Counted from the first letter of the stretch, positions 18,786 to 64,000 are shown. The stretch: DNA of 64,000 nucleotides from Elusimicrobiales bacterium (GCA_050174915.1 JBFXJL010000001.1:539346-603345), one strand, 5' to 3'. Translations and numbers: made by a program. The notes: generated from the sequence alone by a model not told the origin.

Positions 18786-18874
18786 TTTGGGCGGAAACCC
18801 GAGAATTGATGCCTAGTGCTGGCTGGTGATTACTAGCCGCCCTTCAACTGGTCGCAATTACAGTTGGAACACCA

Positions 18875-19738: not shown

Positions 19739-20729
19739 ACTTCCCGGTCTTATGACCCCCGGAACGTTTTACAAACCCGGCGCCCAGCAAAGGCTTCAGA
19801 ATAAAATGCGCACCGGGCTTTGTTACTTTCAACACGGACATTATTTCCTGTATGCCGCGAGGGGCTTCTTTCAGGAGACCTAATAGACGCTCCTGGTTCT
19901 TTGTTAATGAAACGGATTTGTTCCTGGTGAGGGTGCGGATAGAATCTATGCGCTTCCAAGTGCGTTCAAGGGCTTCCAGCACAGTCTCGGAGGAGTACTC
20001 TACCCAGCCGGAAACATCCCCGCCCTGCGTCTGGACTCGGTTCAAGGCATGATAATAGGCCTGTCTGTCCTCCAAGAAGACTTCGTCCACGGCGAAAATG
20101 TGGTTGGTGTCGAAATGTTTGCGATAAAGTTCCCAAGTTGCCAAGGCCCGGCCCACGCGGCCATTGCCGTCGCCAAAGGGATGGATATACTCGAACTGGT
20201 AATGCAGGATGGCAGAACTTACCAGCGCGGGCCAGTCTTTACCCGGACCATTAAGCCAGTCGCATAATTCTCCGGTCAAATACGGCACTGAGGCCGGCGG
20301 CGGCGGGATATGCCCCCCCACAAAGACCTTATAATCCCGGAAATCGCCCACGGGGCCGCGGTCCAGCGCGTTCTGGCGGCCTATTATCGAATGCAGTTTA
20401 AGTACTTGGGGGACCTTTATAGCGGCAATAGCCGAGTTCTTGCCGATAAAGCGCAAAACCTCGAAATAGTTAAGTATTTCCTGCACCGCGCGCGGTTTGG
20501 CGCCGGGCACTGTGCCGCCTGCGGCGAGGGTCTTGATCTCCGGCAGGGTAAGGGGATTGCCCTCTATGGCGGTAGAGCCGTGAGTCTGCCTGGCCAGCGC
20601 TTCGCGCTGCATGTCCGGCAACCAGCTTACGCCTATGGCGGCGCTCTGTATCTTAGCCTTCAGTTCGGCGGCCTGCTCGATAGTCTTGAGAAGATGGTGC
20701 GTCGGGCTGAATTTTGGATTGAATGGCAT
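19728..20729 (-). CDS. fic: Fic-family protein (AMPylase-type) with an N-terminal inhibitory motif and a C-terminal winged-helix-like tail
   Basis: Canonical Fic motif IHPFGDGNGRVGRA. The N-terminal HGSTAIEGNPLT fits the (S/T)xxxE(G/N) auto-inhibitory helix. Confidence 0.9.
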   Translation of the reverse strand: MPFNPKFSPTHHLLKTIEQAAELKAKIQSAAIGVSWLPDMQREALARQTHGSTAIEGNPLTLPEIKTLAAGGTVPGAKPRAVQEILNYFEVLRFIGKNSAIAAIKVPQVLKLHSIIGRQNALDRGPVGDFRDYKVFVGGHIPPPPASVPYLTGELCDWLNGPGKDWPALVSSAILHYQFEYIHPFGDGNGRVGRALATWELYRKHFDTNHIFAVDEVFLEDRQAYYHALNRVQTQGGDVSGWVEYSSETVLEALERTWKRIDSIRTLTRNKSVSLTKNQERLLGLLKEAPRGIQEIMSVLKVTKPGAHFILKPLLGAGFVKRSGGHKTGKYEV

Positions 20730-20832
20730 ACTCTCCCCCTCTTCTTAAGTAAAGCATAAGTATAGTAATACGTCAAGTACTCAGCAGACGCAAAATCCGC
20801 CCCAAGAAACATCCGACCTGATTGACCGGAAA

Positions 20833-20869
20833 GTGATCGGTTGAGAATGGTGATCGGATTGGTGATCGC
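20833..20869. repeat. three GTGATCG(G/C) octamers (right flank / upstream of the Fic cassette)
   Basis: GTGATCGG at 20833, GGTGATCGG at 20849 and GGTGATCGC at 20861, lying 100-140 nt upstream of the Fic start codon. Confidence 0.8.
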
Positions 20870-20907
20870 TTCTAGGTATGTCTAGCGACTTCTCCTGATC
20901 CGTCAGG

Positions 20908-44689: not shown

Positions 44690-45727
44690 CTACCAGATGA
44701 ACTGCACTCCCAGGCGATGGGTGGCGCCGAGGCTGCCGTAGTCCACGTAAGAGTAGTCCACGCGGGCCCCGCGCACCAGACTGTTCCTGTCCGCCAGCCG
44801 GTCGAAGTTCATGCCGAAGCCGCCGGAGAGCTTGGAGCCGGCGTCCTTGTTGTTGCGGTAGCCGAGGCGCAGCTGGAACATCTTCATCACGTCCATCTCC
44901 AGGCCGGTTACTGAGATGTAGTCCTGGTCGGTATATTTGACCATGTCCGAGGCCACCGTGAAAATCATGATGTCGTTGATGGTGCGGAAATCCTTGGCCA
45001 CGCCGAAGCGCAGCGACGAGGGCAGGCCGGAGGAGGCCTCCGCGAATTTCTGCCCCCCGCCCAAATTGAGCGCGGACATCCCGAGCTGGAAATGCCGCGG
45101 CAGCACCAGCGTCACCCCGGCGTCGAAAGCGTAGGTGCCGGAGGTTTCCCCGGCGAGTTTTTCGTCGATCTTCTTTACGCTGGCGCCCGCGGCAAGGCGG
45201 TAGACCTTGGGGCGGTAGTCGGTTACCGGCTCTATCCGGCTCCAGGGCGGGTTGATCAGCATCGGGTCCAGGCGGCCGGCGTCCTTCCTGAAATGCGGCC
45301 AGCTCTGCGCCACGGAGAGCACCAGCAGCCGGTGGCCGGTGGAGGTCTTGCCTATGGGCATGTCGTTATCGTCGTAGGCGTCGATGTCGCCGCTGGACAG
45401 CGAGGAGAAAGCCGCGCCCACCGTGGCGAAAGGGAAGCGCCAGGCCACGGCCAGGTACTCCTGCTTAACTCCGATGAGGTACTGGTTATGCGCTCCCGAG
45501 AAAGCGGAGTAGCTCATCAGGCCCAGGCCGGCGGGGTTGTAAAGGATGGAGTCGGGGCCGACCATGGCCGTGTAAGCCTCGCCCATACCACTGGGGAGCG
45601 CGGCCACCGGAATCTTGAGAAAATTAGCGGCTGTGGTGCCCGCCCCCTCGGCGCCGGCGGGCGCGGCAAGGCGGACGGCCAACAGGGCCGCCGCCGCAAC
45701 GCTCTCTAGATACCGCCGCATTTTCAT
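44690..45727 (-). CDS. PorV/PorQ-family-like outer-membrane beta-barrel protein
   Basis: ORF 44690..45784. The start is moved to ATG 45727 (MKMRRYLESVAAAALLAVRLAAPAGA, a signal peptide). The N-terminal block TTAANFLKIPVAALPSGMGEAYTAMVGPDSILYNPAGLG resembles the PorV/UPF0164 signature. Alternating beta-strand pattern, and the protein ends ...RLGVQFIW. Confidence 0.55.
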   Translation of the reverse strand: MKMRRYLESVAAAALLAVRLAAPAGAEGAGTTAANFLKIPVAALPSGMGEAYTAMVGPDSILYNPAGLGLMSYSAFSGAHNQYLIGVKQEYLAVAWRFPFATVGAAFSSLSSGDIDAYDDNDMPIGKTSTGHRLLVLSVAQSWPHFRKDAGRLDPMLINPPWSRIEPVTDYRPKVYRLAAGASVKKIDEKLAGETSGTYAFDAGVTLVLPRHFQLGMSALNLGGGQKFAEASSGLPSSLRFGVAKDFRTINDIMIFTVASDMVKYTDQDYISVTGLEMDVMKMFQLRLGYRNNKDAGSKLSGGFGMNFDRLADRNSLVRGARVDYSYVDYGSLGATHRLGVQFIW

Positions 45728-45917
45728 ATGGCAAAATGGCAGACAGGCCCAAAAACGCCCGTTCGCCGACATTATAGTATACACTAATGATAAAGCATTT
45801 CAATGACAGATTTGTTACAGTCCGCGGCGCTTTCTCCGCCCCTTGCGGTTCTCCTTGTGCCCGCCGCCCGCACTATAATATAATCGGTTAATACGCATAT
45901 TAATGCGGGGGACCCTA

Positions 45918-47423
45918 ATGATAAAATATTTCCTGTTTGCCGCCTTGGCGGCCTCGCAATTTCTCCTGGCCGCGGCGCCGCTGGCGGCCCAGACCGCCAG
46001 CCGGTCGTCTATAGAGGCCAAGCTCGCGCTGGAGAACTCGCTTGAGAAGCGCGTGCGCATGGTGCTCTCGGAGGCGCTGGGCACGGAGGACATCATAGTG
46101 ATGATCTCCGCCGAACTGCAGGAGCCGGACAAGAAGGCCAGGGAGATCCTTCCCGGCATCCCGCGCCAGGAAAAGATGGGCGAGGCCTCGCTGTCAAGCA
46201 GCCTCACCATGGTCAAGAAGATCTCGGCCAGCCTGATCCTCGACAAGTCCGTTTCCGAGGAGGACGCGCAGCTGGCCCGCAAACTGGCCGGCGGCCTGCT
46301 GGGCCTGCCCTCCGACAGGCAGGACCTGATAACCCTCGAGCGCATGGATTTCCGCAAGGTCCGGCCGCTTACCTTCGCCGACCTGTTCCTCCCCCCCAAC
46401 CTCTGGAGCCTGACCTGGATAGTAGTGGTGGGCGCCCTGGCCTTCCTGACCGTTTTCAAATTCCTGGCGCCGCTCTCGCGCAGCGCCGGAGCCTTCGTAG
46501 AGGCCTTCAGCGCCCACGCCGCGGCGGCCGCCGCCGGCGGAGAGCGCGCCGAACGCGGCGAGCGCCGCGACGAACCGGAAGCCCGCGAGACGGCCAAGGC
46601 GGCGCAGGAGGCCCAGGCCGCCCAGCCCGCCGACGGCCGCAAACCCCCGTTCTGGTTCCTGACCGCCGGGCACCTCTCCAGCCTGGCCTTCATCATGAAG
46701 TCGCGCCCGACCGAGGACCTGACCATCGTGCTCAGCTACGCCCCCGGAGACGTGGCGTCCCGGCTGGCAGAGACCCTCTACCCGAAAAGCGCCGACGCCC
46801 TGGCCCAGCTGCCCAAGGTGACCCTGATGCCGGAGGCGCGCATCCGCTCGCTCGAGGCCGAGATACAGGCCGCGCTGGACTACGTGGTGGGCGGCGAGGA
46901 CAAGGCCGTCGGCATAATCAGCGGCCTCGACGAAGCCGTGCAGGAGAAAGCCCTGGCGGCCTTCGCCCGCCTCGACCCCGTGATGGGCAAGAAGCTCAAC
47001 GCCTCCGTAGTGCGCCTGGCCAACATCCAGGACCTGGAACCGGCCCACGCGCAGACGCTGGCCCGCAGACTGCCGGTGAGAGTGCTGGCGGCAGCACTCA
47101 AAGGCTCCCCCCACGCGCCCGCCTTCCTGGCCAAGCTGGCAGGCGGAATGCAGGAGCGTTTCAAACAGGAGCTGGAACTAACCCGCGACCTGCCCGCCGA
47201 AGCCTACAAGAGCGACAGGGCCAGGGTGGTAGAGACTCTGCGCCAGCTGATCAAAGAAGGCCTGGTGACGCTCAGGGGCCGCGGCGCTCCCGCCCCCAGG
47301 CCCGCGGCCGCCCCGGCGGCGGCCAGGCCCGCCGGCGCGACCCCCGCCCCCGGCGTAAGACCAGCGGCCGCTCCGCCCGCCGCCGCCCCCAAGCCCCCGC
47401 CGGCCGCGGCCGCCAAACCCTGA
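45918..47423 (+). CDS. membrane protein combining a FliF/SctJ-like periplasmic domain, one TM helix and FliG-like middle and C-terminal domains
   Basis: ORF 45903..47423. ATG 45918 is preferred, giving MIKYFLFAALAASQFLLAAAPLAAQ (signal/TM1). ORF aa 36-148 run LENSLEKRVRMVLSEALGTEDIIVMISAELQ...SASLILDKSVSEEDAQLARKLAGGLLGLPSDRQDLITLE, an alpha-beta-beta-alpha-beta ring-building-motif-like pattern. TM helix LWSLTWIVVVGALAFLTVFKFLAPL. After a charged linker, aa 249-457 are FliG-like: RPTEDLTIVLSYAPGDVASRLAETL..., VRVLAAALKGSP..., GMQERFKQELELTRDLPAEAYKSDRARVVETLRQLIKEGLVTL. The tail is Pro/Ala-rich. Confidence 0.65.
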   Translation: MIKYFLFAALAASQFLLAAAPLAAQTASRSSIEAKLALENSLEKRVRMVLSEALGTEDIIVMISAELQEPDKKAREILPGIPRQEKMGEASLSSSLTMVKKISASLILDKSVSEEDAQLARKLAGGLLGLPSDRQDLITLERMDFRKVRPLTFADLFLPPNLWSLTWIVVVGALAFLTVFKFLAPLSRSAGAFVEAFSAHAAAAAAGGERAERGERRDEPEARETAKAAQEAQAAQPADGRKPPFWFLTAGHLSSLAFIMKSRPTEDLTIVLSYAPGDVASRLAETLYPKSADALAQLPKVTLMPEARIRSLEAEIQAALDYVVGGEDKAVGIISGLDEAVQEKALAAFARLDPVMGKKLNASVVRLANIQDLEPAHAQTLARRLPVRVLAAALKGSPHAPAFLAKLAGGMQERFKQELELTRDLPAEAYKSDRARVVETLRQLIKEGLVTLRGRGAPAPRPAAAPAAARPAGATPAPGVRPAAAPPAAAPKPPPAAAAKP

Positions 47424-47441
47424 CTCCCGAGGTAAACTATT

Positions 47442-48215
47442 ATGGACCTGATGACATTCCTTGGAGGCCTGACCGGGCTGGGCGTCATAATCTTCGTGCT
47501 CTCCACCGGCGGCATGCTGAAATTCCTGCTCAACTGGGAAGCCATTATCCTGATCTTCGGCGGTACGGCCGGCTCGGTGATGATCGCCTACCCCTGGGCT
47601 TCGCTGAAGTGGCTTAAGTCCTCGGTGAAAATGGTGATCTTCCCCCCCAAGCGCCCGGCCATACACGAGCTCATCCGCGCCATCGTGCGCTACGCCGAGA
47701 TCGGCAAGAAGAACGGCATCGACGCCATCGCCGGCGAGCTGCGCACCTCGCCGCACCCGTTCCTGACCGACGCCTGCCAGATGATGCTCGACGGCGTGGA
47801 CATACACATCCTGCGCGAGCGCATGGAAAACGACATCAACACCACCCGCCTGCGCCACCAGCAGCAGACCAACATCTTCAACTCGGCCGGCACCTTCGCC
47901 CCGATCTTCGGCCTGCTCGGCACGCTCATCGGCGTCGTGCAGGTGCTCCGCAACATCCAGGACCCGTCCAAGATGGGTTCGTCGATGGCCATCGCCATGA
48001 CCGCGTCCTTCTACGGCATCTTCTCGGCCAACTTCCTGTTCCTGCCCATCGCCAGCAAGCTGGGCTACTATTCCGACGAGGACATCCTCAGCCGCGAGAT
48101 CATCGCCAAGGGCGTGCTCTCCATCTACGACGGGGACGTGCCCTGGCTGGTCTCCAAGAAACTGGAAGGCTACCTGTCCCTGGCGCTGAGACGCAAGGCC
48201 AAGACGGGCGCGTAA
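47442..48215 (+). CDS. motA: MotA/PomA-family proton-channel stator protein
   Basis: 257 aa, 4 TM segments. Conserved blocks include both functionally important prolines: GTFAPIFGLLGTLIGV and SANFLFLPIASKL. GAGG sits upstream of the ATG. Confidence 0.85.
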   Translation: MDLMTFLGGLTGLGVIIFVLSTGGMLKFLLNWEAIILIFGGTAGSVMIAYPWASLKWLKSSVKMVIFPPKRPAIHELIRAIVRYAEIGKKNGIDAIAGELRTSPHPFLTDACQMMLDGVDIHILRERMENDINTTRLRHQQQTNIFNSAGTFAPIFGLLGTLIGVVQVLRNIQDPSKMGSSMAIAMTASFYGIFSANFLFLPIASKLGYYSDEDILSREIIAKGVLSIYDGDVPWLVSKKLEGYLSLALRRKAKTGA

Positions 48216-48245
48216 AGTCAGCGGCCGCTTACCGAGGCACAGCTC

Positions 48246-48920
48246 ATGAAGTTCTTCATCTCCAGATACTCCAGTTACAGAGTGGGCGACAACCCGCTCT
48301 GGCTGGTCGTGCTGGCGGACATCATGACCAACCTCATGCTGTTCTTCCTGATCCTCTACGTCTTCACCACCCGCCCCGACCTGGCCTCCAACTCCGAGTT
48401 CCTGGAGGGCTTCGACAAGGATACCGCCCAGCAGCAGAAGGAAAAGAAGGCCGAGGACGTGGTAAAGAAATTCACCGAGGAGGACCTGGCGCGCAAGCTC
48501 GCCGAGGACCTGCTCAAGGCGGGCATGAAGGACCTGGCCGAAGTGCAGATCACCGCCAAACAGATCAAGATTAACATCGCCGCCCCGGTGCTCTTCCGCT
48601 CCGGCAAGGCGGAGCTGGGCGGCTCTTCGGCCGAGGTGCTGGGACCGGTGGCCGCGGTGCTAAACACGCTGCCCAACGACGTGATAGTGGAGGGCCACAC
48701 CGACGCCGTGCCCATCAAGTCCGGCGACTACGGCACCAACTGGGAACTCTCGGCGGCCCGCGCCAACGCCGTGGTGGACCTGCTGGCCGCCAGGTACTCG
48801 GTGCCGCAGGAGCGGATGATAGCGGCGGCCTACGGCGAGCACCGGCCGGCCGCCCCCAACGACACGGCCGAAGGCCGCGCCAGGAACCGCAGGATCGAGA
48901 TCATAGTCCCCCGGGAATGA
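48246..48920 (+). CDS. motB: MotB-family stator protein 1 (OmpA-like peptidoglycan-binding C-domain)
   Basis: N-terminal TM helix with the channel Asp: PLWLVVLADIMTNLMLFFLILYVF. OmpA-like domain: VEGHTDAVP...NWELSAARANAV...NRRIEIIV. Confidence 0.85.
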   Translation: MKFFISRYSSYRVGDNPLWLVVLADIMTNLMLFFLILYVFTTRPDLASNSEFLEGFDKDTAQQQKEKKAEDVVKKFTEEDLARKLAEDLLKAGMKDLAEVQITAKQIKINIAAPVLFRSGKAELGGSSAEVLGPVAAVLNTLPNDVIVEGHTDAVPIKSGDYGTNWELSAARANAVVDLLAARYSVPQERMIAAAYGEHRPAAPNDTAEGRARNRRIEIIVPRE

Positions 48921-49567
48921 GCGAAAAGAAAGACATCTCCCAGCTCTGGATGGTCCCTTACGCGGACCTGATGACCTGCATGGTCATCCTGTTCCTTGCC
49001 CTCTACGGCTTCGCCTACAACATGAAAGGCTCCGAATACGAGAAGGCGCTGGCCCAGATGCAGAAGGAGCTGGGCATCAAGCACGCCGACCAGAAGCTCA
49101 GGGAGCTCGAGGCCGCCAGCAAGGTGGAAGAGGACCTGAAGGAACAGATCAAGGAAGGCAGCCTGGGCCTGGAGTTCAGCACGTCGCGCATCAAGCTCAC
49201 CTTCGCCTCGCCGGTGCTCTTCGACTCCGGCTCGGCCAGGCTCAAGCCGTCCGCGCTGGCGGTGCTGGATCCGGTGGCCGACAGCCTGCTGAAGATGGAA
49301 AACAGCGTGGTGGTGGAGGGCCATACGGATTCGGCCCGCATGCTCGGCAGGAAATTCGCCTCCAACCGGGAACTATCCATCATGCGCGCTTTCTCGGTGA
49401 TCGACTACCTGGCCTCCAGGGGCGTGAGCCCCGGGCGGCTCACGGCCTTCGGCTACGGGGAGTTCCGCCCGGCCGCCCCGAACGACACCGACGAGAACCG
49501 CGCCCGGAACCGGCGCATAGAGATGATCATCATGCGCCAGGAGCAGCCACAGGGAACCAAATCATGA
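48917..49567 (+). CDS. motB: MotB-family stator protein 2 (paralog)
   Basis: TM helix with Asp: QLWMVPYADLMTCMVILFLALYGF. OmpA-like domain: VEGHTDSARM...NRELSIMRAFSV...NRRIEMII. ATGA overlap with MotB-1. Confidence 0.85.
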   Translation: MSEKKDISQLWMVPYADLMTCMVILFLALYGFAYNMKGSEYEKALAQMQKELGIKHADQKLRELEAASKVEEDLKEQIKEGSLGLEFSTSRIKLTFASPVLFDSGSARLKPSALAVLDPVADSLLKMENSVVVEGHTDSARMLGRKFASNRELSIMRAFSVIDYLASRGVSPGRLTAFGYGEFRPAAPNDTDENRARNRRIEMIIMRQEQPQGTKS

Positions 49568-50490
49568 AAACACTTATCCTCGCCGCGGCGCTCGCCGCCT
49601 TCTCCGGGCCCGCCGCCCTGGCGCAGCCCGCCCCCGAAAATTTCGACCTCAAGGCCTATTACGACAAGGCCTTCTCCTATTACGTGGCCGGGGAATATTC
49701 CAAAGCCATCGAGCAGTGGAACATGGTGCTGCGCTCCGACCCCAAGCAGACCACCGCCAAGAACATGATAGAGGAAGCCCGCCGGAAAATGGCCGGTTCC
49801 GCTTCCGACCTGAAAGGCGCCTTCGCGCGCCTGGTACAGCGCGCCCAGTACGCCGACGCGCTGCAGAAGCTCGAAGAGCTGCTGGCCACCGACCCCACGA
49901 ACCCCTACTATGTGTCGGCCCAGGGCCGGTTGAGAACCATCTCGGCCATCGCCCCCCGCCGCCCTTCCGCCTCGCGCGCCTGGGGCGCCGCCGCGGACGG
50001 CATCGGCGCCTGGCTGGGAGAAAAAGCGGACCTGCCCTTCGCCTACGACGCGCTGCGTTACGCCGCCGAACTGGCCCCCGCCGAGCGGGCCTTTCCCCGC
50101 CTGGTGGCCGCTCTCGAGGCCGAGGCGCCCCAGCTGCGGCTCAACGACACCAAGCCGGAGAACGTAGCCGTGCTCGAGCACAAGAAGGAAAAGGCGCTGC
50201 ACCACATCTACGATTCCAAATTCTACCTGGCCGTCAAGGAGCTCGAAGGCGTGCTGCGCCTGGAGCCCGACGACGTCACCGCGCTCAAACGTGCGGGATC
50301 GGCCTACCTGCAGCTCAAGGATTACCGCCAGGCCCGGAGTTCCTGGCAGCGCGCGCTGGAGCTCTCCCCCGGCGACGAGCAGCTGCCGGAATACCTGAAG
50401 GCGCTCGACGAGGCCATGCCCGAGGCCGCCCGGCCCGGGCCGAGCAAAACCCGGAAAGGCGCCCGCAAACAGGCCGGCGCCCGCTACTGA
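49564..50490 (+). CDS. periplasmic TPR-repeat protein
   Basis: Signal peptide MKTLILAAALAAFSGPAALAQ. TPR-like units (YYDKAFSYYVAGEYSKAIEQWNMVLRSDP; GSAYLQLKDYRQARSSWQRALELSP). ATGA overlap with MotB-2. Confidence 0.75.
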   Translation: MKTLILAAALAAFSGPAALAQPAPENFDLKAYYDKAFSYYVAGEYSKAIEQWNMVLRSDPKQTTAKNMIEEARRKMAGSASDLKGAFARLVQRAQYADALQKLEELLATDPTNPYYVSAQGRLRTISAIAPRRPSASRAWGAAADGIGAWLGEKADLPFAYDALRYAAELAPAERAFPRLVAALEAEAPQLRLNDTKPENVAVLEHKKEKALHHIYDSKFYLAVKELEGVLRLEPDDVTALKRAGSAYLQLKDYRQARSSWQRALELSPGDEQLPEYLKALDEAMPEAARPGPSKTRKGARKQAGARY

Positions 50491-50512
50491 CCTTCCTCTC
50501 CCCCAATAAATC

Positions 50513-50538
50513 AAAAAGGGCCGGCAGCGGCCCTTTTT
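50513..50538. terminator. bidirectional intrinsic terminator between the motor operon and the convergent beta-barrel gene
   Basis: AAAAA GGGCCG GCAG CGGCCC TTTTT. Confidence 0.7.
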
Positions 50539-50560
50539 CCACGCTCCGGCGGCGCGCCGG

Positions 50561-52474
50561 TCAGAAAGAGTAATTGTACCTGGTCATCACGTTCAGCACG
50601 GTCTCGTCGGCGGCCGGGTTGAGGTTGTCCGCGCGCGAGACCCCTCCCACGCCGAAGGTAAACCGGGAGTTCTGGCTCTTCAGCCAGACCGTTTCCACGT
50701 TGAGCGTGACGGAGCTGTTGTCGGCCGGCGAGAGGGGCGAGTCGTTCTCGGCCGAGGCCAGCGTGGCCCAGCACTGCACCGCCATGCCGCGCCGCGGCAT
50801 GGCGTAGGAGAGGCTGGCGGTGAGGCTGTTGTTCTTGCCGGTGGAGGAATCAACCTTGTCCTTCGTCTCGGAACTGACCAGGCCCGTCGACAGGGACAGG
50901 CGCCGGTTGAGCTTGAAAGAGCCGTTGAGAGAGAGCAGCGAGCTGTCCAGGTCGTGCGACAGGCCCAGGTTATCCTTGAAGGAAGACTGCTGCACGCCGG
51001 CCGACAGCGTGTGGCGGCCCAGCGGCTGCGTTACCGAGAGGTTGAGCGTGGTGGTCTGGTTGTCCTGTACGCCCTCGGTCTGGGCCTTGGCGGTATTGGT
51101 CATGATCGAGGTGTTCACCACCGTCTTGCCCAGGATCCTCAGCGTGTTGCCCAGCGTGGTCTGGGCCTGGTCCGTGGTGGTCTTGGCCGGGTCGGCGTCG
51201 AGGTTGTCGGTGTAGGCGTTGTAGGCCACCGTGAAGGTGGTCCAGTCCGCCGGAAAAAGCCCCAGCTCGGCGTCCAGCACCTCCCGGTCCGCGATCACCG
51301 ACGGACTACCGAAGGAATAGAATTTGGGATCTATGCGCGACAGCGCGCCGCGCGCGGTAAACAGGTCGGCGCGGTATTTAAGTTCCTGCTTCCAGGCCGA
51401 GCCGCCCACCGCCGCCCCGGAGGCTTCCAGGTCCGCTTTGTAGGCGCTCATCTGGAAATCGCTGTTGAGGGAGAACGCCTTCAGGAACTTCCACTCGGCG
51501 TTGAGACCGTAGACCACGGTCTGCTGGGGCTTGATGGTCAGCGCCGTCGTGGTGATGTTGATGGAATGCATGTCGTCACGGCTCATCACCGCGTCCGCCG
51601 AGACCTTGAGGTTGGGCCGGAACTGCCAGCCGGCCTTCAGGCCGCTGGTATAGCGCGCGAAGCGGCCGCCGCTGTTGGGGCCAGGCTCCTCGGGCGCCAC
51701 GATGCGCCCCACCAGGGCCAATAACGAATACTTTCCCCGCGCCCGCTCGAACGAGACGCCGCGCATGCCCTGCCCGTCCATCGACAGCGGCGTCAGGGTG
51801 GGCGAGATGTCGCCTACGCTCAGGGTACCCCAGGGGGCGTAGTAGTTGAGCAGCACTATCGTGGGCGTGATCGGGCGGTGGTAGGTGTGCACCACGTAGG
51901 TATTGAACAGGAAGGAGGACTGGCGGATCTTGCCCACCAGATTGGCCGACGTGATCCCCTGGTGGTGGTCCCAGCCGTCGCGGCTGTTGTTCTTGTAGGT
52001 GAAAGAGACGTCGCCGCCGATCTTGAAATCTTCGGGCACAGTGTAGCGCAGCTCCTTTTCTATGACCTGGAAGCCCTTGAAATCGGTCTCGAGGATGCGG
52101 CGGCCGTCCTTGATGAGGAAGACGCGGTAAAGCAGGCGGCGGCCGGCCAGGTTGTCGGGCACGCGGAAAGCCAGCTGCACGCCCTGCGCCGCGCCCGGGG
52201 CCACGTCCTCGGCCGGCGACACGCTGGCCGTCTGGGTGAGAAAGCGGCGGCCCTCACCCTCTATGGCGTATACCTCGCCTATCCAGTAGTAACTGCCGCG
52301 CTCCCACACGGAGGCGCCGCTGTTGACGGCCAGCGTCTGAAGCGTCACTTCCTCGCCGGCCATCACCGGGTCGGGCGCGGCCACCGTGAACTGCAGGCTC
52401 GCGGCGTCCTGCGCCAGCAGCGGCCGGGCCTGACAGACGAGGGAGAAAAATATTATTGCGGCAAGTTTACGCAT
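50561..52474 (-). CDS. outer-membrane beta-barrel protein with an N-terminal Ig-like domain, unknown family
   Basis: Signal peptide MRKLAAIIFFSLVCQARPLLAQ. The alternating-residue beta-strand pattern persists throughout. C-terminal OMP signature ...VMTRYNYSF (terminal Phe). Confidence 0.7.
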   Translation of the reverse strand: MRKLAAIIFFSLVCQARPLLAQDAASLQFTVAAPDPVMAGEEVTLQTLAVNSGASVWERGSYYWIGEVYAIEGEGRRFLTQTASVSPAEDVAPGAAQGVQLAFRVPDNLAGRRLLYRVFLIKDGRRILETDFKGFQVIEKELRYTVPEDFKIGGDVSFTYKNNSRDGWDHHQGITSANLVGKIRQSSFLFNTYVVHTYHRPITPTIVLLNYYAPWGTLSVGDISPTLTPLSMDGQGMRGVSFERARGKYSLLALVGRIVAPEEPGPNSGGRFARYTSGLKAGWQFRPNLKVSADAVMSRDDMHSINITTTALTIKPQQTVVYGLNAEWKFLKAFSLNSDFQMSAYKADLEASGAAVGGSAWKQELKYRADLFTARGALSRIDPKFYSFGSPSVIADREVLDAELGLFPADWTTFTVAYNAYTDNLDADPAKTTTDQAQTTLGNTLRILGKTVVNTSIMTNTAKAQTEGVQDNQTTTLNLSVTQPLGRHTLSAGVQQSSFKDNLGLSHDLDSSLLSLNGSFKLNRRLSLSTGLVSSETKDKVDSSTGKNNSLTASLSYAMPRRGMAVQCWATLASAENDSPLSPADNSSVTLNVETVWLKSQNSRFTFGVGGVSRADNLNPAADETVLNVMTRYNYSF

Positions 52475-52519
52475 TATCAGCCTTAAATTATATTAATTTA
52501 CCAGCGGCCGGCGGCCGGC

Positions 52520-57130: not shown

Positions 57131-57204
57131 TTTAAATCCGCTTGGTTACAACTCCACCTAATCTCCCGCCTCCCGCTTTAGAACCTCGATTTATTGTTGT
57201 TGCA

Positions 57205-60200
57205 TTACTTCAATAGCAGGGTCGCCTTCCCGCCGACGCAGTTGGTCAGGAACAACCCGACGCTGGTGCCGCTGGAGGGAAGCCCGACGCCTCCAACCGC
57301 ACCGACCGTGGCTGAAGTGACAGCATGCTGCCCAAATGCGCCGTTGATGCAGTTGGCAACAACTACTCCGGCCACCGCTATTTTGGCCGTGCTAGCCACT
57401 GTACCGCTGCCAATCGCCACACCGATAACGGTGGAAGTAGAAGCCACCCCTATGGTGCCGAACTGATTGTTCCCGGAAGCGATCACCACGTCGCCATCCA
57501 CAAAAGGTGTTGAAGCGGTCAGCCAGATCACTATCGGCGTATTCCCTATCTGACTGCCGTCGCCGAGCCCCAGGTCTCCGCTAACCTGCAGCCTGGCGGG
57601 GTTGGCCGGGTTAACGCCGTCGTTCGTAATGAAGACGTTGCCTTCGAAACGGCCGGCATAACCGCTGCCGGCCACGCCTTTTATAGCGGTCGCGGCGCTG
57701 TTAGACCAGCCATAAACGCCGGCGTCCGTGCTACTGGGTGAACTGGTCAGGCCCGCGATCGCCCCCCCGGCCAAGTCCTTCACATGCAGCTTAAAGCCGG
57801 GGGTGTTAGTGCCTATCCCGACCTTGTTGGCATTACTGACGTAAAGCGCGGGGTCGGCGTAGGCTGTACCGGTGGAAACCCAGAAGCCGCCGGCGGCTTT
57901 AAACATCACCTGGTCCCCCACCGAATTCTCCACCACCACGCCCTTGCTGTCGGCCCAGGTGAACGTGCCGTTAGCCGTGGAACTGGACATGTAACCGGCC
58001 GCGAAGGAATAGTTGCCTTTGGCCGTGTTGTTGCTGCCGCCCGGCACGGCGGAATCTCCGCCGGTCGCCATGTTGGAGGAGCCGCCGGCTACCACCGAAT
58101 TGTCCCCGGTTGCATGGTTGCCGCCGCCGGCGCCCACGAACGAGGATCCGCCCAGGGCCTTGTTCCCCCAGCCGGCCACCACGCCCGCGTAATATTCAGA
58201 AGCCGCACCCGCAGTGTTCATCCAGCCGCCGGCCACCACGGAGTAGGCCGTGCTGGCGGTATTGCCGTAACCGCTTCCCACGAAGGCGAACATTTCTTCG
58301 GCGAGGTTGTCCTGGCCGGAGAAGATCGCCGAGTGGCTCCCGTACACGGAGTTGCCCTTACCGCCTCCGATAGTACCGAAGTAGGAGGCCGCGTAGTTGC
58401 CCTCGCCGCCGGAGATGACGGCCGAAGTGCCGGCCGCTATGTTGTAGCGGCCGCCGGCTACCACGGTGTTGGAACCGAGCACGGTGTTGTAGGCGCCGCC
58501 GCTGAGGGTTGAAAAATCGCCCAGCGCCACCTGGCCGGACACCTCGCGGGCCGTCTGCAGGTCCACCGCCCCCATGCCGCGCACCCCCGCGCCCGAGATG
58601 CCGTTGCCCACACCGACCGTGACTATGGAGCCGGCCGTCGATACCTGTATTCCGGTAGTAGCGAAGTCATATGTGTAAAGCGCGGGATCAACACTGATGG
58701 TAAGGTTGCCGGACATATTGTCGCCGGTCTTCGACACTTTAGAGGAAAGCGCGTCCACCTGGGCGTAAAGCACGCCGGAAGCCGTCATGCTGGCGCGTAT
58801 CACGCCGCCGGCGTCGCGCCATATCTGCGCCACCGTGGCAGTGGAGCGTATGTCCAGCATGGCCTGCGGGGCTCCGGTAGCGATACCGACGCCGCCGTCG
58901 CTCCGTATCACCATGCGCGTCTGCGCCTCCGCGGTGCCGTCGGCAGCTGTCATGAACTCCAGCCTGCCGGGCATATCGAGCGCGGGATGAACGCTGGCCA
59001 CGCCGTCCACGCGGCCGACTATCGCCGCCGCGGTCGGGAATGGGTCTCCGGGCGAGGCGTTATAGCCGCCGAAGGCCAGCACGCCCAGGTTGTCTCCGGA
59101 CTGGACCACGGCCTGCGAATTGGCCGTGCCGCGCGCCTTGAGCAAGGCGAGATAGGAGCCTTCAGGAGTATCGCTGTTATGCTCCACCACAATGCCCTCG
59201 TCCTTGGTGGCCGCGGTAAGGTGCAGCGGGGCCTGAGGCCGCTGCGTGTTGATACCAACCCAGCCGCCGGTGGTCACCACCAGGTGGTAAGCGGAGGCCG
59301 AAGTTCCCACGCGCACGGTGTAGGAGGAAACGGCCACATCGGCCTGCACCACGCTCAGCGCCGCGTCGGGCGCGGGCGTGCCCACGCCCAGGCGGTTCTC
59401 CACCACAAGGCTGTTGGCCGGAGGATGGGCTAGGTTGTAGGTGGCCCCCACGCTCATGCTGCCCTTCAACTGCAGCTGCGGGGACAGGAGATCGCTCTGT
59501 ATGCCGGCGCCGGGGCCAATACCGATGTGCTCGCCGCCGTAACCCACATGCATGTATTTCGTGGCCCCGCTATAGAAGACCATACCGCCAGCCCCGTTGG
59601 ACAACAGCCCGTCGGTAACGGGGTTGCCGCCGGCATTGGTGGAGATCAGCACCCTGCCGGAAATGTCCAGCGCCTCGGCCGGCGAAGCGATTCCGATGCC
59701 CACACGCCCGGCATCGGTGACGCGCAGGCGCTCAGTGCCCGCGGTGGCAAAAGCAAGCTGGTCCTGGCCAGGGCTATAAAAGCCCGTATTTTCATCCCCG
59801 CTGAAGGAAAGGGAAGGCACCGCGGCCGTTCCCTGCGGCAGCAGCAGCGCGCCGGTCATGGTGTCGCCGGTCTTCTGCACCGCGCTGGCAGAGGTAACGC
59901 CGGTCAGGCCGGAGCCGTCTCCATAGTAGCGCGCTGCGGAACTGAAGCCGACTACATAGACATTAGTGGAGATCCTGATGCCGGCGCCTAAGGCCGGGTC
60001 GGTCTCCGGGGAAATGGTGCGGGAGGCGTCCGACAGGACCAGGCCCGCGCTGGTGCCGCGCGTCGTTATCGAGCCGTTATAGACGTCGAACTTAGAGGCG
60101 GGACCTGTGGAACCCATGGAGATCTTCCCGTCCCCGCGCACGGAGAGAACCGTGTTCGCTCCGTTGTTGGCCGTAATGTTCAAGGCATACTTAGTTGGGC

Positions 60201-63200
60201 TGGAGGTCATGAGCGCGATAGTGACGCCATCCGAAGAACTATTGTCAGTAACGAAATGGGCTATCCCTCCGGTTCCCTGCCCGAGAACGCTCAACGGCAG
60301 CAGCGGAGCGGCGACGTCTTTCTGTACTACCGACAGGAGGGCGCTGGGAGTAGCGGTACCGACGCCGACCAGGCCGGAGTCGACGAAGAAAGTGGAGACG
60401 CCAACGCTGAAGGCGTTGCCTTGCACGGTGATAGTGGAGAGCGTCGTCAGCTGCCCGCTCATGAAGTCGCCGGTCTTTTGCACCGCACCGGCGGAGGTAA
60501 CGCCCGTCAGGCCCGAGCCGTCGCCGTAGAAGACGCCGGTGGCGGTGACGCTGGCGCGCGTCACGCCGTCAGAGTCGCGCCAGACCTGGGCGTACTGGTT
60601 GACCGTGGTGCCCGTGGAGATGATATCGAGCATGCCTTGGTTAAGCGGAAGTACCGGATTGCCGGCTACCGTGCTGCCAACGACCATGAAGCCGCCCTCG
60701 GTCTTGAACAGCGCGCGGTCGGCGGCGGTATTGCGTATTTCGTACCCCTTGGAGTCGCTCCAGGTGAAGGCGCCGTTGGCGGTGGAAGAAGATCGGTAAC
60801 CGCCGGCCCAGGAATACTGCCCAATGGCGGTATTATACGCGCCGCCGGAAACCGTCGCGCGGCCACCGCTGGCGCTATTGTTTTGACCGCCGGAAACCGT
60901 CGCGTAGATACCATTTGCCGTGTTTTGAGAACCGCCGGTAATAGTCGCATACGTACCGCTGGACCTGTTTTGATAACCGCCGGAAACAGTCACATATAAT
61001 TGCAAGGCCGTATTTTCATAACCGCCGGAAACCGTCGCATAGCCCAAAGAGGCCATGTTGCTTTGACCGCCGGAAACCGTCGCCTGAGGACCGCTGGCCG
61101 TGTTATTTACGCCGCCGGAAACCGTCGAATAATCGCCACTGGCGGTATTATTTTGACCACCGCCAATCGACGAAACTTTCCCGCTGGCCACCTGGGCCCC
61201 CAGGGCCCGGTAGGTCTGCAGGTCCACGGCTCCCATGCCGCGTGCGTTGCCGACGGCGGAGCCGTGGCCGAGGCCCGTGGTGCGTATCGCGCCGCCGGTG
61301 GAGATGACTATGCCGGTGGTGATGAAGTCCGAAGTGTCGCTCAGAAGGTCGTCGGAAAGTATAGACAGCGGCCCGGTCATGGTATCGCCGGACTTGAGGA
61401 CCGAACCGGCAGCGGCCGGCAGATTGGTAAGGCCGGAACCGTCGCCGTAGAAGACGCCGGTGGCAGTGACGCTGGCGCGCGTCACGCCGTCCGAATCGCG
61501 CCAGATCTGGGTATAATCGCTGACCGTATTGCCAGCGGCCAGCACGTCCAGCGCGGCCTGCGGGGCGCCGGTGGAAATGCCAACGCGGCCTTCGCCGGTG
61601 ATGAAGACGCCGCGGTCCAGGGGGCCGGTCATCGAGGTGTTGGTGGAACCGGTCACCAGGAAGCCGCCGCGGCTCTTGAACACGGTGCGGTCGGTGACAT
61701 CGTTGACAAGGTTAATGGCCGCTCCGCCGCTGTCCTGCCAGGTGAAGGCGCCCTGCGCTGTAGAGCTGGACCGCCCGCCGGCGGCGAAGGAATAATTGGC
61801 TTTCGCCGTGTTGTTGTATCCGCCGGGCACGGTCGCGTACATCCCGCTCGCGCGATTGTCGTTACCGCCGCCCACGAAAGCGTACTGCGCTTCGGCGCGG
61901 TTGCCGGCTCCGCCCGCCACGGCCGACTGGGCGCTGATGGCGGCGTTCCCCTGTCCTCCCGCCACTACAGCGTGGTTGGCCGAGGCCGTATTGCCCTGGC
62001 CGCCACCGACGTAAGAGTAGGCGTTGACAGCGGTATTTGAAAGACCGCCCCCGGCCGAGGAGTGCATTCCTGACGCGATATTATACTCGCCGCCGGCCAC
62101 CACGGCGGAAGTGCCGACTACCGTGTTATAAGCGCCACCGCCTACGACCGAATTGGAGCCGCTGACCACATTGAACACGCCGCCGGAAACAGCAGAGGAA
62201 TGACCGCTTACGACATTATCTATACCGCCGCCGACAGTGGAATAATACGCGGAAGCTGAATTAGTTTCACCTCCCGAAATGACGGACCGCAGGCCAGTGG
62301 CGCTATTTTCCCACCCGCCGCCGACTACGGCAGCGACACCGCTGGCGCTATTTGTATAACCACCGCCCACGGTGGAGTAGATGCTGCTGGAGGTATTTCT
62401 GAATCCTCCGGACAGGACCGAGTAGCTGCCGCTGGCTGTCTGGGCCGACAGTGCCCGGACGGTCTGCAAGTCCACCGCACCGATGCCGCGGGCGTTGCCG
62501 GCGACCGTGCCGTGACCTATGCCCGTGGTGCGTATCGCGCCGCCGGTGGAAATGACGAGGCCGGTGGTGATGAAATCCGAAGTGTCGCTCAGAAGGTCGT
62601 CGGAAAGGATATGTAGCGGCCCGGTCATAGTGTCGCCGGCCTTCTGCACCGCGCCGGCGGAGGTAACCCCGGTCAGGCCGGAGCCGTCGCCTATGAAGCG
62701 CACCGCCTGCAGGGAACCGGTGACGCTCATAGAACCGACGATAAGGCCGGTAGAGTCGCGCCAGATCTGGGCCATCTGCGTATGTGCGGTGCCTGTCGAG
62801 ACTATGTCCAGAGCCGCCTGCGGGGCACGCGTGGAAATACCTACGGTTTTAACGCCCAGCTGGCCAAAGATCAGCCCGCCGATATTCAGTTCGCTCGCGG
62901 AGTCAGAAGCTGAGGTCTGCTGATTGTAGCCGATGACGATGTTCTGAAGTCCGCTAATATTGGCGCTCCCGGCAGCGGAGCCGATAAACGTGTTCCCTGT
63001 GCCGGTGATATTAGCGGAGCCGGCATCGTGGCCTACCAGGACATTATGGATCCCGGAACTATTGACCTTTCCGGCAGCCGAACCCACAAATACGTTAAAT
63101 TGCCCGTAGTTTACCGCGCCGGCCATCGGCCCGACCTTAAGCGTATTGGAGGCCAGCCCGCCGCCCAGGGCCAGCACCGTGCTGCCGCTGACCTGGTAAT

Positions 63201-64000
63201 AAGGGGCGCTGACGCCGTAAGAACCGAAGCTGGCGGTGCCGGTGGAATTGTTGACCGTGCCGTAACCCAGCGCCAGGCTGAGTTCGGCGTTGGCCTTGGC
63301 CTGCGCGCCCAGCGCGGTGGCCGAGGACGAAGCGTAGGAATAGGCGCCCAGCGCCGCGCCGAAGCCGGCGTTATACTGAGAATACGCGCCCACACCTACT
63401 GCGTAATTGTCGTTGTTCTGCGCGTAAGCGCCCACGCCGACGCCGTAATTATCGTTGTTCTTAGCGCTGTGACCAATGCCTGTACCGTTTTGGAAGTTCT
63501 CAGAGGCTTCGGCGCCTACGCCAACACCACTGTTGTAATTTCTGGAAGCAAAGGCTCCGATTCCGACGCCATAGCTGCCGTTTTCACTGGCAAATGCCCC
63601 CAATCCGACGCTGTAGTAAGAATTCAGGTAAGCGCTATAACCTATTCCAATTCCGGAATCAGAGTTGCTATAAGAATTGGAGCCAATGGATATTCCATAT
63701 CCCACATTCGTCCCCCCCGTGCCGGGCGGGACTATGGCTATGCTACCGCCCTGCATGGTGATAGTAGAGACGCCGGAGAGGAAATTGCCATCCATGTCGA
63801 TGGCCCCCTGCATGGTGCCGCCGGTAAGCTGGAGGGCGTTCGGGTCGGTGCCGGTGGCGCCGGTCACGCCGGTCAGGCCGGAGCCGTCGCCGTGAAAGCG
63901 CGTCGCGTGCGCGCCGTCGCCCTCCACCCAGAACAGGTTGCTGGTGCCGGTAGACACGGCCATTATGGTGCCGGCCTCGCCGGCGCCGCTGGAAACGACC
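57205..64000 (-). CDS. giant repetitive surface protein with tail-fibre-like and YadA-head-like beta-helical repeats (5' end beyond right window edge)
   Basis: 2252 aa from the first Met, and the frame stays open upstream to position 64000 (VVSSGAGEAGTI-MAVST...). It contains recurrent modules Q(I/V)WRDSxG...(F/Y)xGDGSGLTGVT...K(T/S/A)GD(T/F/N)M(T/S)GxL. It also has long runs of 14-residue xSGGxxNxAS repeats and FTWxDSxG...GGFxV closing motifs. The N-terminal region has GxGxGAxAxxN repeats. Confidence 0.8.
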   Translation of the reverse strand, partial: VVSSGAGEAGTIMAVSTGTSNLFWVEGDGAHATRFHGDGSGLTGVTGATGTDPNALQLTGGTMQGAIDMDGNFLSGVSTITMQGGSIAIVPPGTGGTNVGYGISIGSNSYSNSDSGIGIGYSAYLNSYYSVGLGAFASENGSYGVGIGAFASRNYNSGVGVGAEASENFQNGTGIGHSAKNNDNYGVGVGAYAQNNDNYAVGVGAYSQYNAGFGAALGAYSYASSSATALGAQAKANAELSLALGYGTVNNSTGTASFGSYGVSAPYYQVSGSTVLALGGGLASNTLKVGPMAGAVNYGQFNVFVGSAAGKVNSSGIHNVLVGHDAGSANITGTGNTFIGSAAGSANISGLQNIVIGYNQQTSASDSASELNIGGLIFGQLGVKTVGISTRAPQAALDIVSTGTAHTQMAQIWRDSTGLIVGSMSVTGSLQAVRFIGDGSGLTGVTSAGAVQKAGDTMTGPLHILSDDLLSDTSDFITTGLVISTGGAIRTTGIGHGTVAGNARGIGAVDLQTVRALSAQTASGSYSVLSGGFRNTSSSIYSTVGGGYTNSASGVAAVVGGGWENSATGLRSVISGGETNSASAYYSTVGGGIDNVVSGHSSAVSGGVFNVVSGSNSVVGGGAYNTVVGTSAVVAGGEYNIASGMHSSAGGGLSNTAVNAYSYVGGGQGNTASANHAVVAGGQGNAAISAQSAVAGGAGNRAEAQYAFVGGGNDNRASGMYATVPGGYNNTAKANYSFAAGGRSSSTAQGAFTWQDSGGAAINLVNDVTDRTVFKSRGGFLVTGSTNTSMTGPLDRGVFITGEGRVGISTGAPQAALDVLAAGNTVSDYTQIWRDSDGVTRASVTATGVFYGDGSGLTNLPAAAGSVLKSGDTMTGPLSILSDDLLSDTSDFITTGIVISTGGAIRTTGLGHGSAVGNARGMGAVDLQTYRALGAQVASGKVSSIGGGQNNTASGDYSTVSGGVNNTASGPQATVSGGQSNMASLGYATVSGGYENTALQLYVTVSGGYQNRSSGTYATITGGSQNTANGIYATVSGGQNNSASGGRATVSGGAYNTAIGQYSWAGGYRSSSTANGAFTWSDSKGYEIRNTAADRALFKTEGGFMVVGSTVAGNPVLPLNQGMLDIISTGTTVNQYAQVWRDSDGVTRASVTATGVFYGDGSGLTGVTSAGAVQKTGDFMSGQLTTLSTITVQGNAFSVGVSTFFVDSGLVGVGTATPSALLSVVQKDVAAPLLPLSVLGQGTGGIAHFVTDNSSSDGVTIALMTSSPTKYALNITANNGANTVLSVRGDGKISMGSTGPASKFDVYNGSITTRGTSAGLVLSDASRTISPETDPALGAGIRISTNVYVVGFSSAARYYGDGSGLTGVTSASAVQKTGDTMTGALLLPQGTAAVPSLSFSGDENTGFYSPGQDQLAFATAGTERLRVTDAGRVGIGIASPAEALDISGRVLISTNAGGNPVTDGLLSNGAGGMVFYSGATKYMHVGYGGEHIGIGPGAGIQSDLLSPQLQLKGSMSVGATYNLAHPPANSLVVENRLGVGTPAPDAALSVVQADVAVSSYTVRVGTSASAYHLVVTTGGWVGINTQRPQAPLHLTAATKDEGIVVEHNSDTPEGSYLALLKARGTANSQAVVQSGDNLGVLAFGGYNASPGDPFPTAAAIVGRVDGVASVHPALDMPGRLEFMTAADGTAEAQTRMVIRSDGGVGIATGAPQAMLDIRSTATVAQIWRDAGGVIRASMTASGVLYAQVDALSSKVSKTGDNMSGNLTISVDPALYTYDFATTGIQVSTAGSIVTVGVGNGISGAGVRGMGAVDLQTAREVSGQVALGDFSTLSGGAYNTVLGSNTVVAGGRYNIAAGTSAVISGGEGNYAASYFGTIGGGKGNSVYGSHSAIFSGQDNLAEEMFAFVGSGYGNTASTAYSVVAGGWMNTAGAASEYYAGVVAGWGNKALGGSSFVGAGGGNHATGDNSVVAGGSSNMATGGDSAVPGGSNNTAKGNYSFAAGYMSSSTANGTFTWADSKGVVVENSVGDQVMFKAAGGFWVSTGTAYADPALYVSNANKVGIGTNTPGFKLHVKDLAGGAIAGLTSSPSSTDAGVYGWSNSAATAIKGVAGSGYAGRFEGNVFITNDGVNPANPARLQVSGDLGLGDGSQIGNTPIVIWLTASTPFVDGDVVIASGNNQFGTIGVASTSTVIGVAIGSGTVASTAKIAVAGVVVANCINGAFGQHAVTSATVGAVGGVGLPSSGTSVGLFLTNCVGGKATLLLK

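Follow-up and report, generated by a model that had tools for sequence, protein, structure and literature searches.

A MotAB/FliG-type motor cassette beside PorV-like barrels and CTD-tagged giant proteins points to an ion-powered surface machine in Elusimicrobia

In a 64,000-nucleotide stretch of high-GC chromosomal DNA from an Elusimicrobia bacterium (the window), a five-gene cassette for a FliG-like rotor protein, a MotA/PomA-type stator subunit, two MotB paralogs and a secreted TPR protein lies between the gene for a PorV-like outer-membrane barrel and an operon for a second, larger barrel and very large surface proteins, one of which ends in a C-terminal sorting domain (CTD) of the kind that type IX secretion systems (T9SS) use. 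Taken together, the sequence, predicted-structure and comparative genomic evidence used throughout this study points to a previously undescribed proton-powered machine for exporting or moving adhesins. That the motor acts jointly with the PorV/CTD module we consider likely. With rather less confidence we hold it probable that motor work goes into exporting, anchoring or moving the CTD-bearing surface proteins, as a first-pass annotation of this DNA had suggested it may; synteny and gene strings containing a PorV-TPR fusion lend inferential support to this suggestion. Comparative genomics strongly supports the proposed link between the motor and the surface proteins. A literature search returned no description of such a system, and nothing that connects Elusimicrobia with T9SS/PorV or with a non-flagellar FliG/MotAB.

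Gene order around the motor cassette

The cassette occupies the plus strand and begins with the FliG-like gene (45903-47423), which is followed by the genes for MotA (47442-48215), MotB paralog 1 (48246-48920), MotB paralog 2 (48917-49567) and the TPR protein (49564-50490; Pfam TPR_2, E 5e-13), the final gene of the operon. Divergent from it lies the PorV-like gene (44690-45784, minus strand), with ispA and then dxs on its 3' side and on the same strand. Convergent with the cassette are three minus-strand genes, encoding a 637-aa barrel protein (50561-52474), a 1536-aa protein with Kelch, fn3 and CarboxypepD_reg domains (52520-57130) and a giant repeat protein (57205-64000), whose open reading frame (ORF) is open at the window end and has its 5' end beyond it. 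The gaps among these three genes are 45 and 74 nt, and the first-pass description of a co-directional trio with this spacing holds at exact coordinates. Between the stop codons of the converging operons sits a strong GC-rich hairpin (50513-50538) with an 11-bp stem (AAAAAGGGCCG...CGGCCCTTTTT) and A5/T5 flanks, which is likely a bidirectional terminator. Because the motor and barrel operons converge and both end at this one hairpin, they appear to be separate transcription units.

Distant members of the rotor family show the motor and the surface genes in a different arrangement. A search of 1.84 billion representative proteins with a profile of the FliG-like protein, including its periplasmic ring-building motif (RBM), recovered 241 clusters at E <= 1e-30, of which the majority are full length, and all named members are from Elusimicrobia or Elusimicrobiota. 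Five distant genomic contexts (L066-L070), a small sample, were examined. Four of these contain a co-directional string composed of a giant CTD protein, a fusion of a PorV-family barrel with a TPR region, and the FliG-like rotor protein. In L066 the string starts with a 16,931-aa protein with a type-A CTD (TIGR04183, 24.1 bits against a cut-off of 23) and continues with the PorV-TPR protein (PorV_fam, 116.5 bits) and the FliG-like protein, and MotA and MotB come next on the same strand. L067 encodes a 2,329-aa CTD protein, a PorV-TPR protein (local PorV HMM, E 6e-36) and the FliG-like protein, with MotA/MotB convergent. The string of L070 comprises a 14,454-aa CTD protein, a PorV-TPR protein (same HMM, E 2e-42) and the FliG-like protein, and MotA/MotB follow on the same strand after FlbD. 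In L069 a 17,141-aa protein, whose CTD-like end was recognised by eye only, precedes the PorV-TPR protein (E 2e-35) and the FliG-like protein; no MotA/MotB was seen within the fetched locus. The fifth context, L068, is without PorV and giant genes and has MotA on the same strand after FlbD, where the contig ends.

In the L066 fusion, the N-terminal half is matched by the window PorV-like protein (E 9e-7), and residues 385-510 in the C-terminal half are matched by the window TPR protein (126 aa; BLASTP E 8e-18). Judged from these alignments, what distant relatives encode as one gene would correspond to two genes of the window, one at each flank of the motor cassette, and this fusion gene sits between the gene for the CTD cargo and the gene for the rotor. 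A fusion together with its neighbourhood is a classic type of evidence for a functional link. L066 carries in addition another PorV-family gene, beside that for another CTD protein. Each distant string is headed by one giant adhesin-like gene, which recalls SprB.

Other features recur at the distant loci. A long coiled-coil protein is encoded just past the FliG-like or stator genes in L066 (13288-15762, 824 aa), L067 (14011-15843, 610 aa) and L068 (12045-15214, 985 aa), and large unannotated proteins occupy the same position in L070 (11938-14810, 800 aa) and L069 (11912-20087, 1604 and 1118 aa). FlbD lies directly upstream of MotA in L068 and L070, and some distant FliG-like proteins have an extra C-terminal TPR region.

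Closer to the window, synteny was surveyed in 58 related Elusimicrobia loci by mapping all window proteins onto each of them. The five-gene motor operon is present wherever the locus has sequence. Of 30 informative loci, 27 have the 637-aa barrel gene directly downstream of it and convergent, with a spacing of usually 3-130 nt to the TPR gene, and after the barrel gene comes a protein that ends in the same CTD. Relatives that carry the cassette without these neighbours, an outcome considered in the first-pass annotation, are thus mostly not what is seen. It is important to note how the two flanks behave at depth: among the seven loci with 31-47% FliG identity, all seven keep the barrel/CTD flank, whereas only two keep the PorV-like/ispA/dxs flank. 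The contrast between the flanks provides a built-in control for gene order that was simply inherited. The identities of the FliG and barrel proteins are correlated across loci (r 0.95).

In a reciprocal test, contexts were started from distant barrel homologs of 38-41% identity. In L060 the genes for a giant CTD protein, a 721-aa protein, a FecR-like protein and the barrel converge on a full motor operon. In L063 a full motor operon lies 7.5 kb from the barrel operon, across an accessory insertion. The contexts L061 and L062 stop about 1.3 kb past the barrel and are uninformative on the motor. The insertion of about 7.5 kb in L063 (4861-12235) consists mostly of toxin-antitoxin and accessory genes (HipA, PemK, HTH regulators) and lies exactly between the two operons. 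Two polytopic membrane proteins of 590 and 526 aa, GT-C-like in appearance and without family match, are appended 3' of the TPR gene in the motor operon of L060 (12285-15627, minus strand).

Upstream of the barrel, CTD proteins as short as 627 aa and as long as 7195 aa are encoded. Their passengers comprise Kelch, beta-helix, FG-GAP and fn3 domains, and the CTD is conserved; in distant loci it ends proteins of 5,000-7,000 aa. By these comparisons the cargo tag appears more constant than the cargo. A PorV-family gene (PorV_fam, 155.6 bits) lies within the barrel operon of L015, and in L054 a PorV-family gene adjoins the gene for an 853-aa CTD protein. Between the CTD protein and the barrel, a FecR-domain protein of about 244 aa and a CARDB-like protein of about 580-720 aa are encoded in the deeper relatives L048 (16340-18816), L051, L053, L060, L061 and L063. 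L015 has the CARDB-like protein, with the PorV-family gene in the FecR position, and the window clade is without both.

On the other side of the motor, 29 of 37 informative loci in the nearer clade carry the PorV-like gene upstream, and this adjacency is by itself weak evidence of coupling. A Peptidase_C11 gene lies between the PorV-like and FliG-like genes in about 25 of those loci; the copy at L003 (8615-9868, minus strand; clostripain, clan CD; Pfam E 6e-51) is co-directional with the PorV-like gene, and tblastn found no copy in the window. In Bacteroidota porU adjoins porV. Because the arrangement in the relatives recalls this pair, the C11 peptidase could by analogy be a CTD-processing enzyme.

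The same gene order could also have been conserved between neighbours with separate jobs. The barrels and CTD proteins would then be a self-sufficient sorting unit, and the motor/TPR cassette would have a different role in the envelope, for instance to tether the outer membrane to peptidoglycan as Tol-Pal/CpoB does, or to act as a brake or sensor under regulation, with adjacency due to co-regulation or inherited order. The tracking of FliG and barrel identities is what simple vertical inheritance predicts, and the convergent, separately terminated operons of the window, the four loci that lack a barrel operon beside the motor, the weak matches of the TPR protein to tol_pal_ybgF and BamD models and a PilZ gene near the motor in L066 can be read in the same way. 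However, inherited order would not lead one to expect the barrel flank in every deep relative and the other flank in two of seven, nor a PorV-TPR fusion directly upstream of the FliG-like gene, co-directional and after a CTD giant, in four distant loci. MotA is, moreover, of the flagellar MotA/PomA type (185 bits) and not of the TolQ type (18 bits). We therefore regard separate jobs as unlikely and favour a motor that works together with the PorV/CTD module.

The rotor and stator proteins

A family profile (A1) of the FliG-like protein matches the middle and C-terminal domains of FliG (FliG_MC) in the PDB at E 9e-30, and a Foldseek search with the AlphaFold2 (AF2) model of the protein recovers FliG_MC at E 1e-7. 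In the model, a signal peptide precedes a periplasmic alpha-beta-beta-alpha-beta domain (residues 34-148; predicted local distance difference test, pLDDT, 80-89), after which come a transmembrane helix (164-190) and the FliG portion; as a whole the model is of only moderate confidence (pLDDT 68). The periplasmic domain finds the RBM3/S-ring of FliF and PrgK in Foldseek, weakly but repeatedly (E ~1e-2), and relatives of the protein have weak YscJ_FliF_C and SpoIIIAG matches. On this model the protein looks like a minimal FliF-FliG fusion. The window copy is 96% identical to its homolog in HGW-Elusimicrobia-3 and 93% identical to that in GWB2_63_16. It scores 22 on the flagellar FliG model TIGR00207, against a cut-off of 226.7, and has no FliG N domain. 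The EHPQR motif for FliM binding is absent from the family, and the family alignment reads S/T-R-P-V-E-D at the EHPQ position.

MotA matches the PDB MotA structure 9lu9 over its full length (E 2.5e-53). It reaches 174-185 bits on the NCBIfam MotA/PomA models, which is below the equivalog cut-offs (185 vs 340). Both MotB paralogs, which are 43% identical to each other, retain the transmembrane Asp, the plug and the OmpA-like peptidoglycan-binding domain. Paralog 1 just passes Pfam MotB_plug (24.9 vs 24; OmpA E 9e-19), and paralog 2 scores 33 against the same cut-off (OmpA E 2e-20). Two MotB genes are present in nearly all 45 cassette-carrying loci.

When the positions that mediate torque in flagellar motors are compared, the roles of the residues being taken from earlier work (PMC12505986, PMC7564593), both partners are seen to be altered. 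The torque helix is conserved within the FliG-like family, with G415, Q422 and E423 invariant; in terms of E. coli FliG, R281 is replaced by the invariant Gly (G415), D288 by Gln and D289 by the invariant Glu. In MotA the family alignment shows conserved K/R89-90 and E99; the equivalent of R90 is K/R, and the equivalent of E98 is Ala (A97), with a conserved Glu two residues on. Since the equivalents of R281 and E98 are gone, torque generation as in the flagellum is not assured. An interface that is altered yet family-conserved on both partners fits a working, non-canonical rotor-stator pair.

With a rotor and stators of flagellar type, the cassette might also belong to a divergent true flagellum, in which the FliF-FliG fusion forms the MS-ring and the surface genes are incidental. 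The FliG and MotA similarities and the plug and OmpA features of MotB are what one would expect, FlbD adjoins MotA in L068 and L070, and JGI annotates some members of the family as FliG. Against this, the rotor protein has one RBM of about 115 aa, compared with three in FliF, and lacks the EHPQR motif that binds FliM. Genes for export, rod, hook and filament are absent from the window, and the recurrent genes found up to 10 kb to either side of the 58 loci, where not every ORF was profiled, include none that was recognised as such; the neighbours are PorV/CTD genes instead. A divergent flagellum is therefore highly improbable, and a flagellum-independent motor is the preferred reading of the cassette.

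Two further assignments were considered and set aside. A Zorya defence system was rejected, as MotA is without a ZorA match and the MotB paralogs show only generic ZorB/MotB similarity. A Tol-Pal-like reading is weak on the MotA and TolQ scores given above.

Outer-membrane barrels, sorting domain and cargo

The PorV-like protein passes the NCBIfam PorV/PorQ family model NF033709 (99.3 bits, cut-off 90; E 3e-28) and contains the block FLKIPVAALPSGMGEAYTAMVGPDSILYNPAGLG, on which the first-pass annotation had based its assignment to PorV/PorQ-type shuttle proteins. It falls below the equivalog cut-offs for PorV (NF033710) and PorQ (NF033711; 46.5 vs 220), so that the membership is at family level only. 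In the divergent intergenic region that the gene has in common with the motor operon lies a promoter-like site on the minus strand (45776-45803; TTGAAA-16-TATACT), which matches the consensus at 10 of 12 positions and is a consensus match only. The longest ORF starts at a GTG (45784) that falls within this site. With a start at an ATG at about 45727, the protein has a normal signal peptide and a length in line with the roughly 345 aa of the relatives. Because the GTG overlaps the promoter-like site, the true start is probably this ATG. Signal peptides are found on the Kelch protein, the 637-aa barrel and the TPR protein as well.

The 637-aa protein, which had been described from the sequence as a barrel ending in Phe, terminates in RYNYSF. 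Its AF2 model, computed from a 30-sequence alignment (pLDDT 80.8), consists of an eight-strand Ig-like N-terminal domain, predicted to be periplasmic, and a 26-strand beta-barrel over residues 150-636. The best PDB match is the 26-strand barrel MtrB (6r2q_B; E 2e-10, TM-score 0.51, identity 10%); ushers and TonB-dependent transporters appear in the structure search as generic barrel matches. An SprA-, PorV- or usher-type barrel was rejected on the strand number and the MtrB best match. The protein matches no Pfam or other curated family, its homologs are annotated as hypothetical only, and all named source organisms of the homologs are Elusimicrobia.

The 1536-aa protein carries its CTD in the C-terminal ~90 aa (52523-52837), which pass TIGR04183 marginally (24.2 vs 23). 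Orthologous CTDs score 30.1 and 35.4 bits on the same model. Alignment A3 of the CTDs reads YPNPA...FD..GRL...ASGVYLY...KVVKK.AVVR, to be compared with the usual motifs YPNPA / FD..GR.V / ASGVY...K. The profile made from it retrieves 1520 proteins with PF18962/PF13860, including some from Flavobacteriia and Ignavibacteriales that are labelled "T9SS type A sorting domain"; only short proteins are among the 120 matches listed, and the search is evidence of homology and not a census of Elusimicrobia cargo. The C-terminus resembles the CTDs of PorU and PorZ, and the only similarity to PorU lies in PorU's own CTD. The type-A T9SS domain proposed at the outset for this Kelch/FN3 protein is borne out by these searches, with clearer scores in the orthologs, and neither the CTD nor the PorV assignment failed when profiles were run against the locus.

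Of the earlier description of the third gene as a tail-fibre-like protein of more than 2252 aa, the length stands, as the ORF comprises at least 2264 aa and is open at the window end, and the label does not. A phage tail-fibre identity was rejected: no PHROG family matches at E <= 1e-3, and residues 518-751 match the head of the trimeric autotransporter UspA1 (PDB 3pr7, E 1.8e-20). Apart from this, only a sub-threshold match to a Chlorovirus glycoprotein repeat was seen (26.4 vs 27). Pfam and NCBIfam models detect neither a CTD nor a YadA-type C-terminal anchor, and the C-terminus is unrelated to that of the trimeric autotransporters. From these matches the giant protein appears to be an adhesin-like repeat protein. 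Homologs are encoded at the same position in L002, L003, L005 and L018.

A canonical T9SS (GldKLMN, SprA, PorU/Z) encoded elsewhere in the genome might export the CTD proteins; the PorV-like protein would then belong to that system, and the motor would be unrelated. The CTD and PorV families are indeed T9SS families, and CTD proteins occur at loci that have nothing to do with the motor, which suggests some general CTD pathway. The latter follows from L064 (10001-15835) and L065 (9490-14107), where a 179-aa protein that is little more than a type-A CTD (TIGR04183, 31.9 bits) is encoded inside a cluster for lipopolysaccharide-core biosynthesis (LpxK, two GT9 genes, KdtA). On the other side, T9SS core genes have been reported to be absent outside the Fibrobacteres-Chlorobi-Bacteroidetes (FCB) phyla (PMC11285876), and our literature search found no link between Elusimicrobia and T9SS. 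No core component was found in the 64-kb window or in the precomputed Pfam annotation of ten fetched contexts (L060-L070). For GldK/L/M/N, SprA and PorU, Pfam and NCBIfam scans of the window ORFs agree with the first-pass annotation that none is encoded there. A PorV-TPR fusion directly upstream of the FliG-like gene would also be hard to explain. We rate a T9SS elsewhere with an unrelated motor as quite improbable, and continue to favour a motor coupled to the PorV/CTD module.

A few observations concern genes away from these proteins. In L064 and L065, 956/762-aa or 1341-aa proteins without family match are encoded 3' of the 179-aa CTD protein. The remainder of the window consists of ordinary housekeeping and signalling genes, according to profile scans of its ORFs. 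Among these, a type II/IV secretion ATPase (MshEN + T2SSE; 16254-18437, minus strand) is fused to a C-terminal response-regulator receiver domain and adjoins a histidine kinase gene (15113-16246). Two stretches (1-6500 and 18400-20900) have a GC content of 0.50-0.57, compared with 0.62-0.69 elsewhere, and encode proteins without family match and a Fic-domain protein (19728-20729); they may be acquired islands.

A proposed envelope-spanning machine

With reasonable though limited confidence, we propose that the region encodes two halves of one Elusimicrobia-specific machine that spans the envelope. The inner-membrane half would consist of MotA and two peptidoglycan-anchored MotB proteins acting on a ring of the single-pass RBM/FliG protein, which would hold FliG_MC in the cytoplasm and its FliF-like ring-building domain in the periplasm. 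The outer-membrane half would comprise the PorV-family barrel, the 26-strand Ig-domain barrel and the very large adhesin-like proteins. Cargo would be exported by Sec, and its CTD would be bound by the PorV-family barrel, as in T9SS. Starting at the outer membrane, the TPR module would project into the periplasm in the direction of either the RBM ring or the MotB domains. Ion flow via MotA-MotB1-MotB2 would turn or strain the FliG-RBM ring, and the resulting work would pull or release cargo across the outer membrane or propel adhesins over the cell surface. The obvious conduit or anchor in the window clade would be the 26-strand barrel. The analysis shows the gene content, the folds and families, and neighbourhoods that are conserved and in part fused; we infer the coupling, the direction of energy flow and the output, which may be secretion, anchoring or gliding. 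In its most specific form, the proposal is a third, flagellum-independent use of FliG/MotAB, in which an RBM/FliG ring is turned by peptidoglycan-anchored stators, a TPR arm reaches to the PorV barrels, and CTD adhesins of 1,500-17,000 aa are extracted or propelled; the power train would derive from flagellar parts or from a pre-flagellar rotor-stator module. This version we put forward only tentatively, at somewhat less than even chances.

Several observations weigh against a motor that drives the surface proteins. The motor and barrel operons of the window converge on a common hairpin and are not co-transcribed. In three of the 30 informative loci (L007, L011 and L012), and in L046, a pullulanase-type block follows the TPR gene instead of the barrel, which is probably the result of one or two rearrangements. 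The PorV-like gene is missing in L016 and L022; it is upstream of the motor only in the nearer clade, and there it is co-directional with the housekeeping genes ispA-dxs. Loci with the PorV-TPR fusion do not contain the 26-strand barrel, whose role is for this reason not universal in the wider family. The CTD of the 1536-aa protein, marginal on TIGR04183, fails Pfam PF18962 (18.2 vs 27). By our own estimate, a folded Kelch propeller would seem not to fit through the 26-strand pore. Finally, the rotor is without the equivalent of R281 and MotA without that of E98.

The proposed machine shares features with several known systems. A close counterpart is the T9SS/gliding apparatus of Bacteroidota, in which GldLM does like work for PorV-bound cargo and SprB. 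Common to both are cargo with a type-A CTD, PorV/PorQ barrels encoded beside cargo, giant adhesin-like cargo, and an ion-driven inner-membrane motor of the MotAB/ExbBD/GldLM superfamily that is genetically linked to barrels and cargo; in relatives of the window, a clan-CD peptidase (C11) lies beside the PorV-like gene, as porU lies beside porV. In contrast, the motor here is MotA and MotB (plug, OmpA) on a FliG-type rotor and not GldL/GldM, neither the window nor the fetched contexts contain GldK/N, SprA, PorU or PorZ, the large barrel is MtrB-like with 26 strands whereas SprA has 36, and the host phylum is outside the FCB group.

The flagellar motor has in common with the cassette a full-length MotA/PomA homolog, MotB with transmembrane Asp, plug and OmpA-like domain, FliG_MC with a conserved torque helix, an RBM fold of FliF/PrgK type in the periplasm and, in some relatives, FlbD beside MotA. 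It differs in that here a single RBM and FliG are united in one single-pass polypeptide with a signal peptide, the FliG N domain and EHPQR are absent, the R281/E98 pair is replaced by G415 in the FliG-like protein and A97 in MotA, there are two MotB paralogs, and no genes for export apparatus, rod, hook, filament or switch are nearby.

The Agl-Glt machinery of Myxococcus consists of the AglR/Q/S motor, the periplasmic TPR protein GltC, the barrels GltA/B/H and the adhesin CglB; its motor is TolQR-like and is not known to have OmpA domains or to work with a FliG protein. The two systems are alike in outline, in that each combines a single A-type with two B-type motor subunits, a TPR protein in the periplasm, barrels in the outer membrane and a surface adhesin as output, and unlike in that Agl-Glt is not known to have a PorV family member or a CTD tag; the likeness is one of description and not of sequence. 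MtrB of MtrCAB (6r2q_B) shares with the 637-aa protein a 26-strand barrel with room for a polypeptide to run through it across the outer membrane. At such low identity and TM-score, and with no cytochromes encoded nearby, this likeness is in barrel size only. Trimeric autotransporter adhesins (UspA1/YadA) resemble the giant protein in the repeats that match the UspA1 head, whereas the giant protein has no YadA-type anchor and its gene lies upstream of those for the CTD protein and a separate barrel.

Stators that carry a plug and an OmpA domain have been described as specialised for flagellar rotation (PMC12505986). If the proposed machine exists, such stators together with a FliG rotor would drive something besides the flagellum, and sorting of the PorV/CTD type would reach beyond the FCB superphylum. 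With one RBM, FliG_MC and no switch complex, the FliG-like protein would offer a minimal test rotor for ring turning by MotAB and for delivery to the outer membrane, and the system would bear on how the flagellar motor was assembled from older modules. It would also hint at how a poorly known phylum displays adhesins of up to ~17,000 residues.

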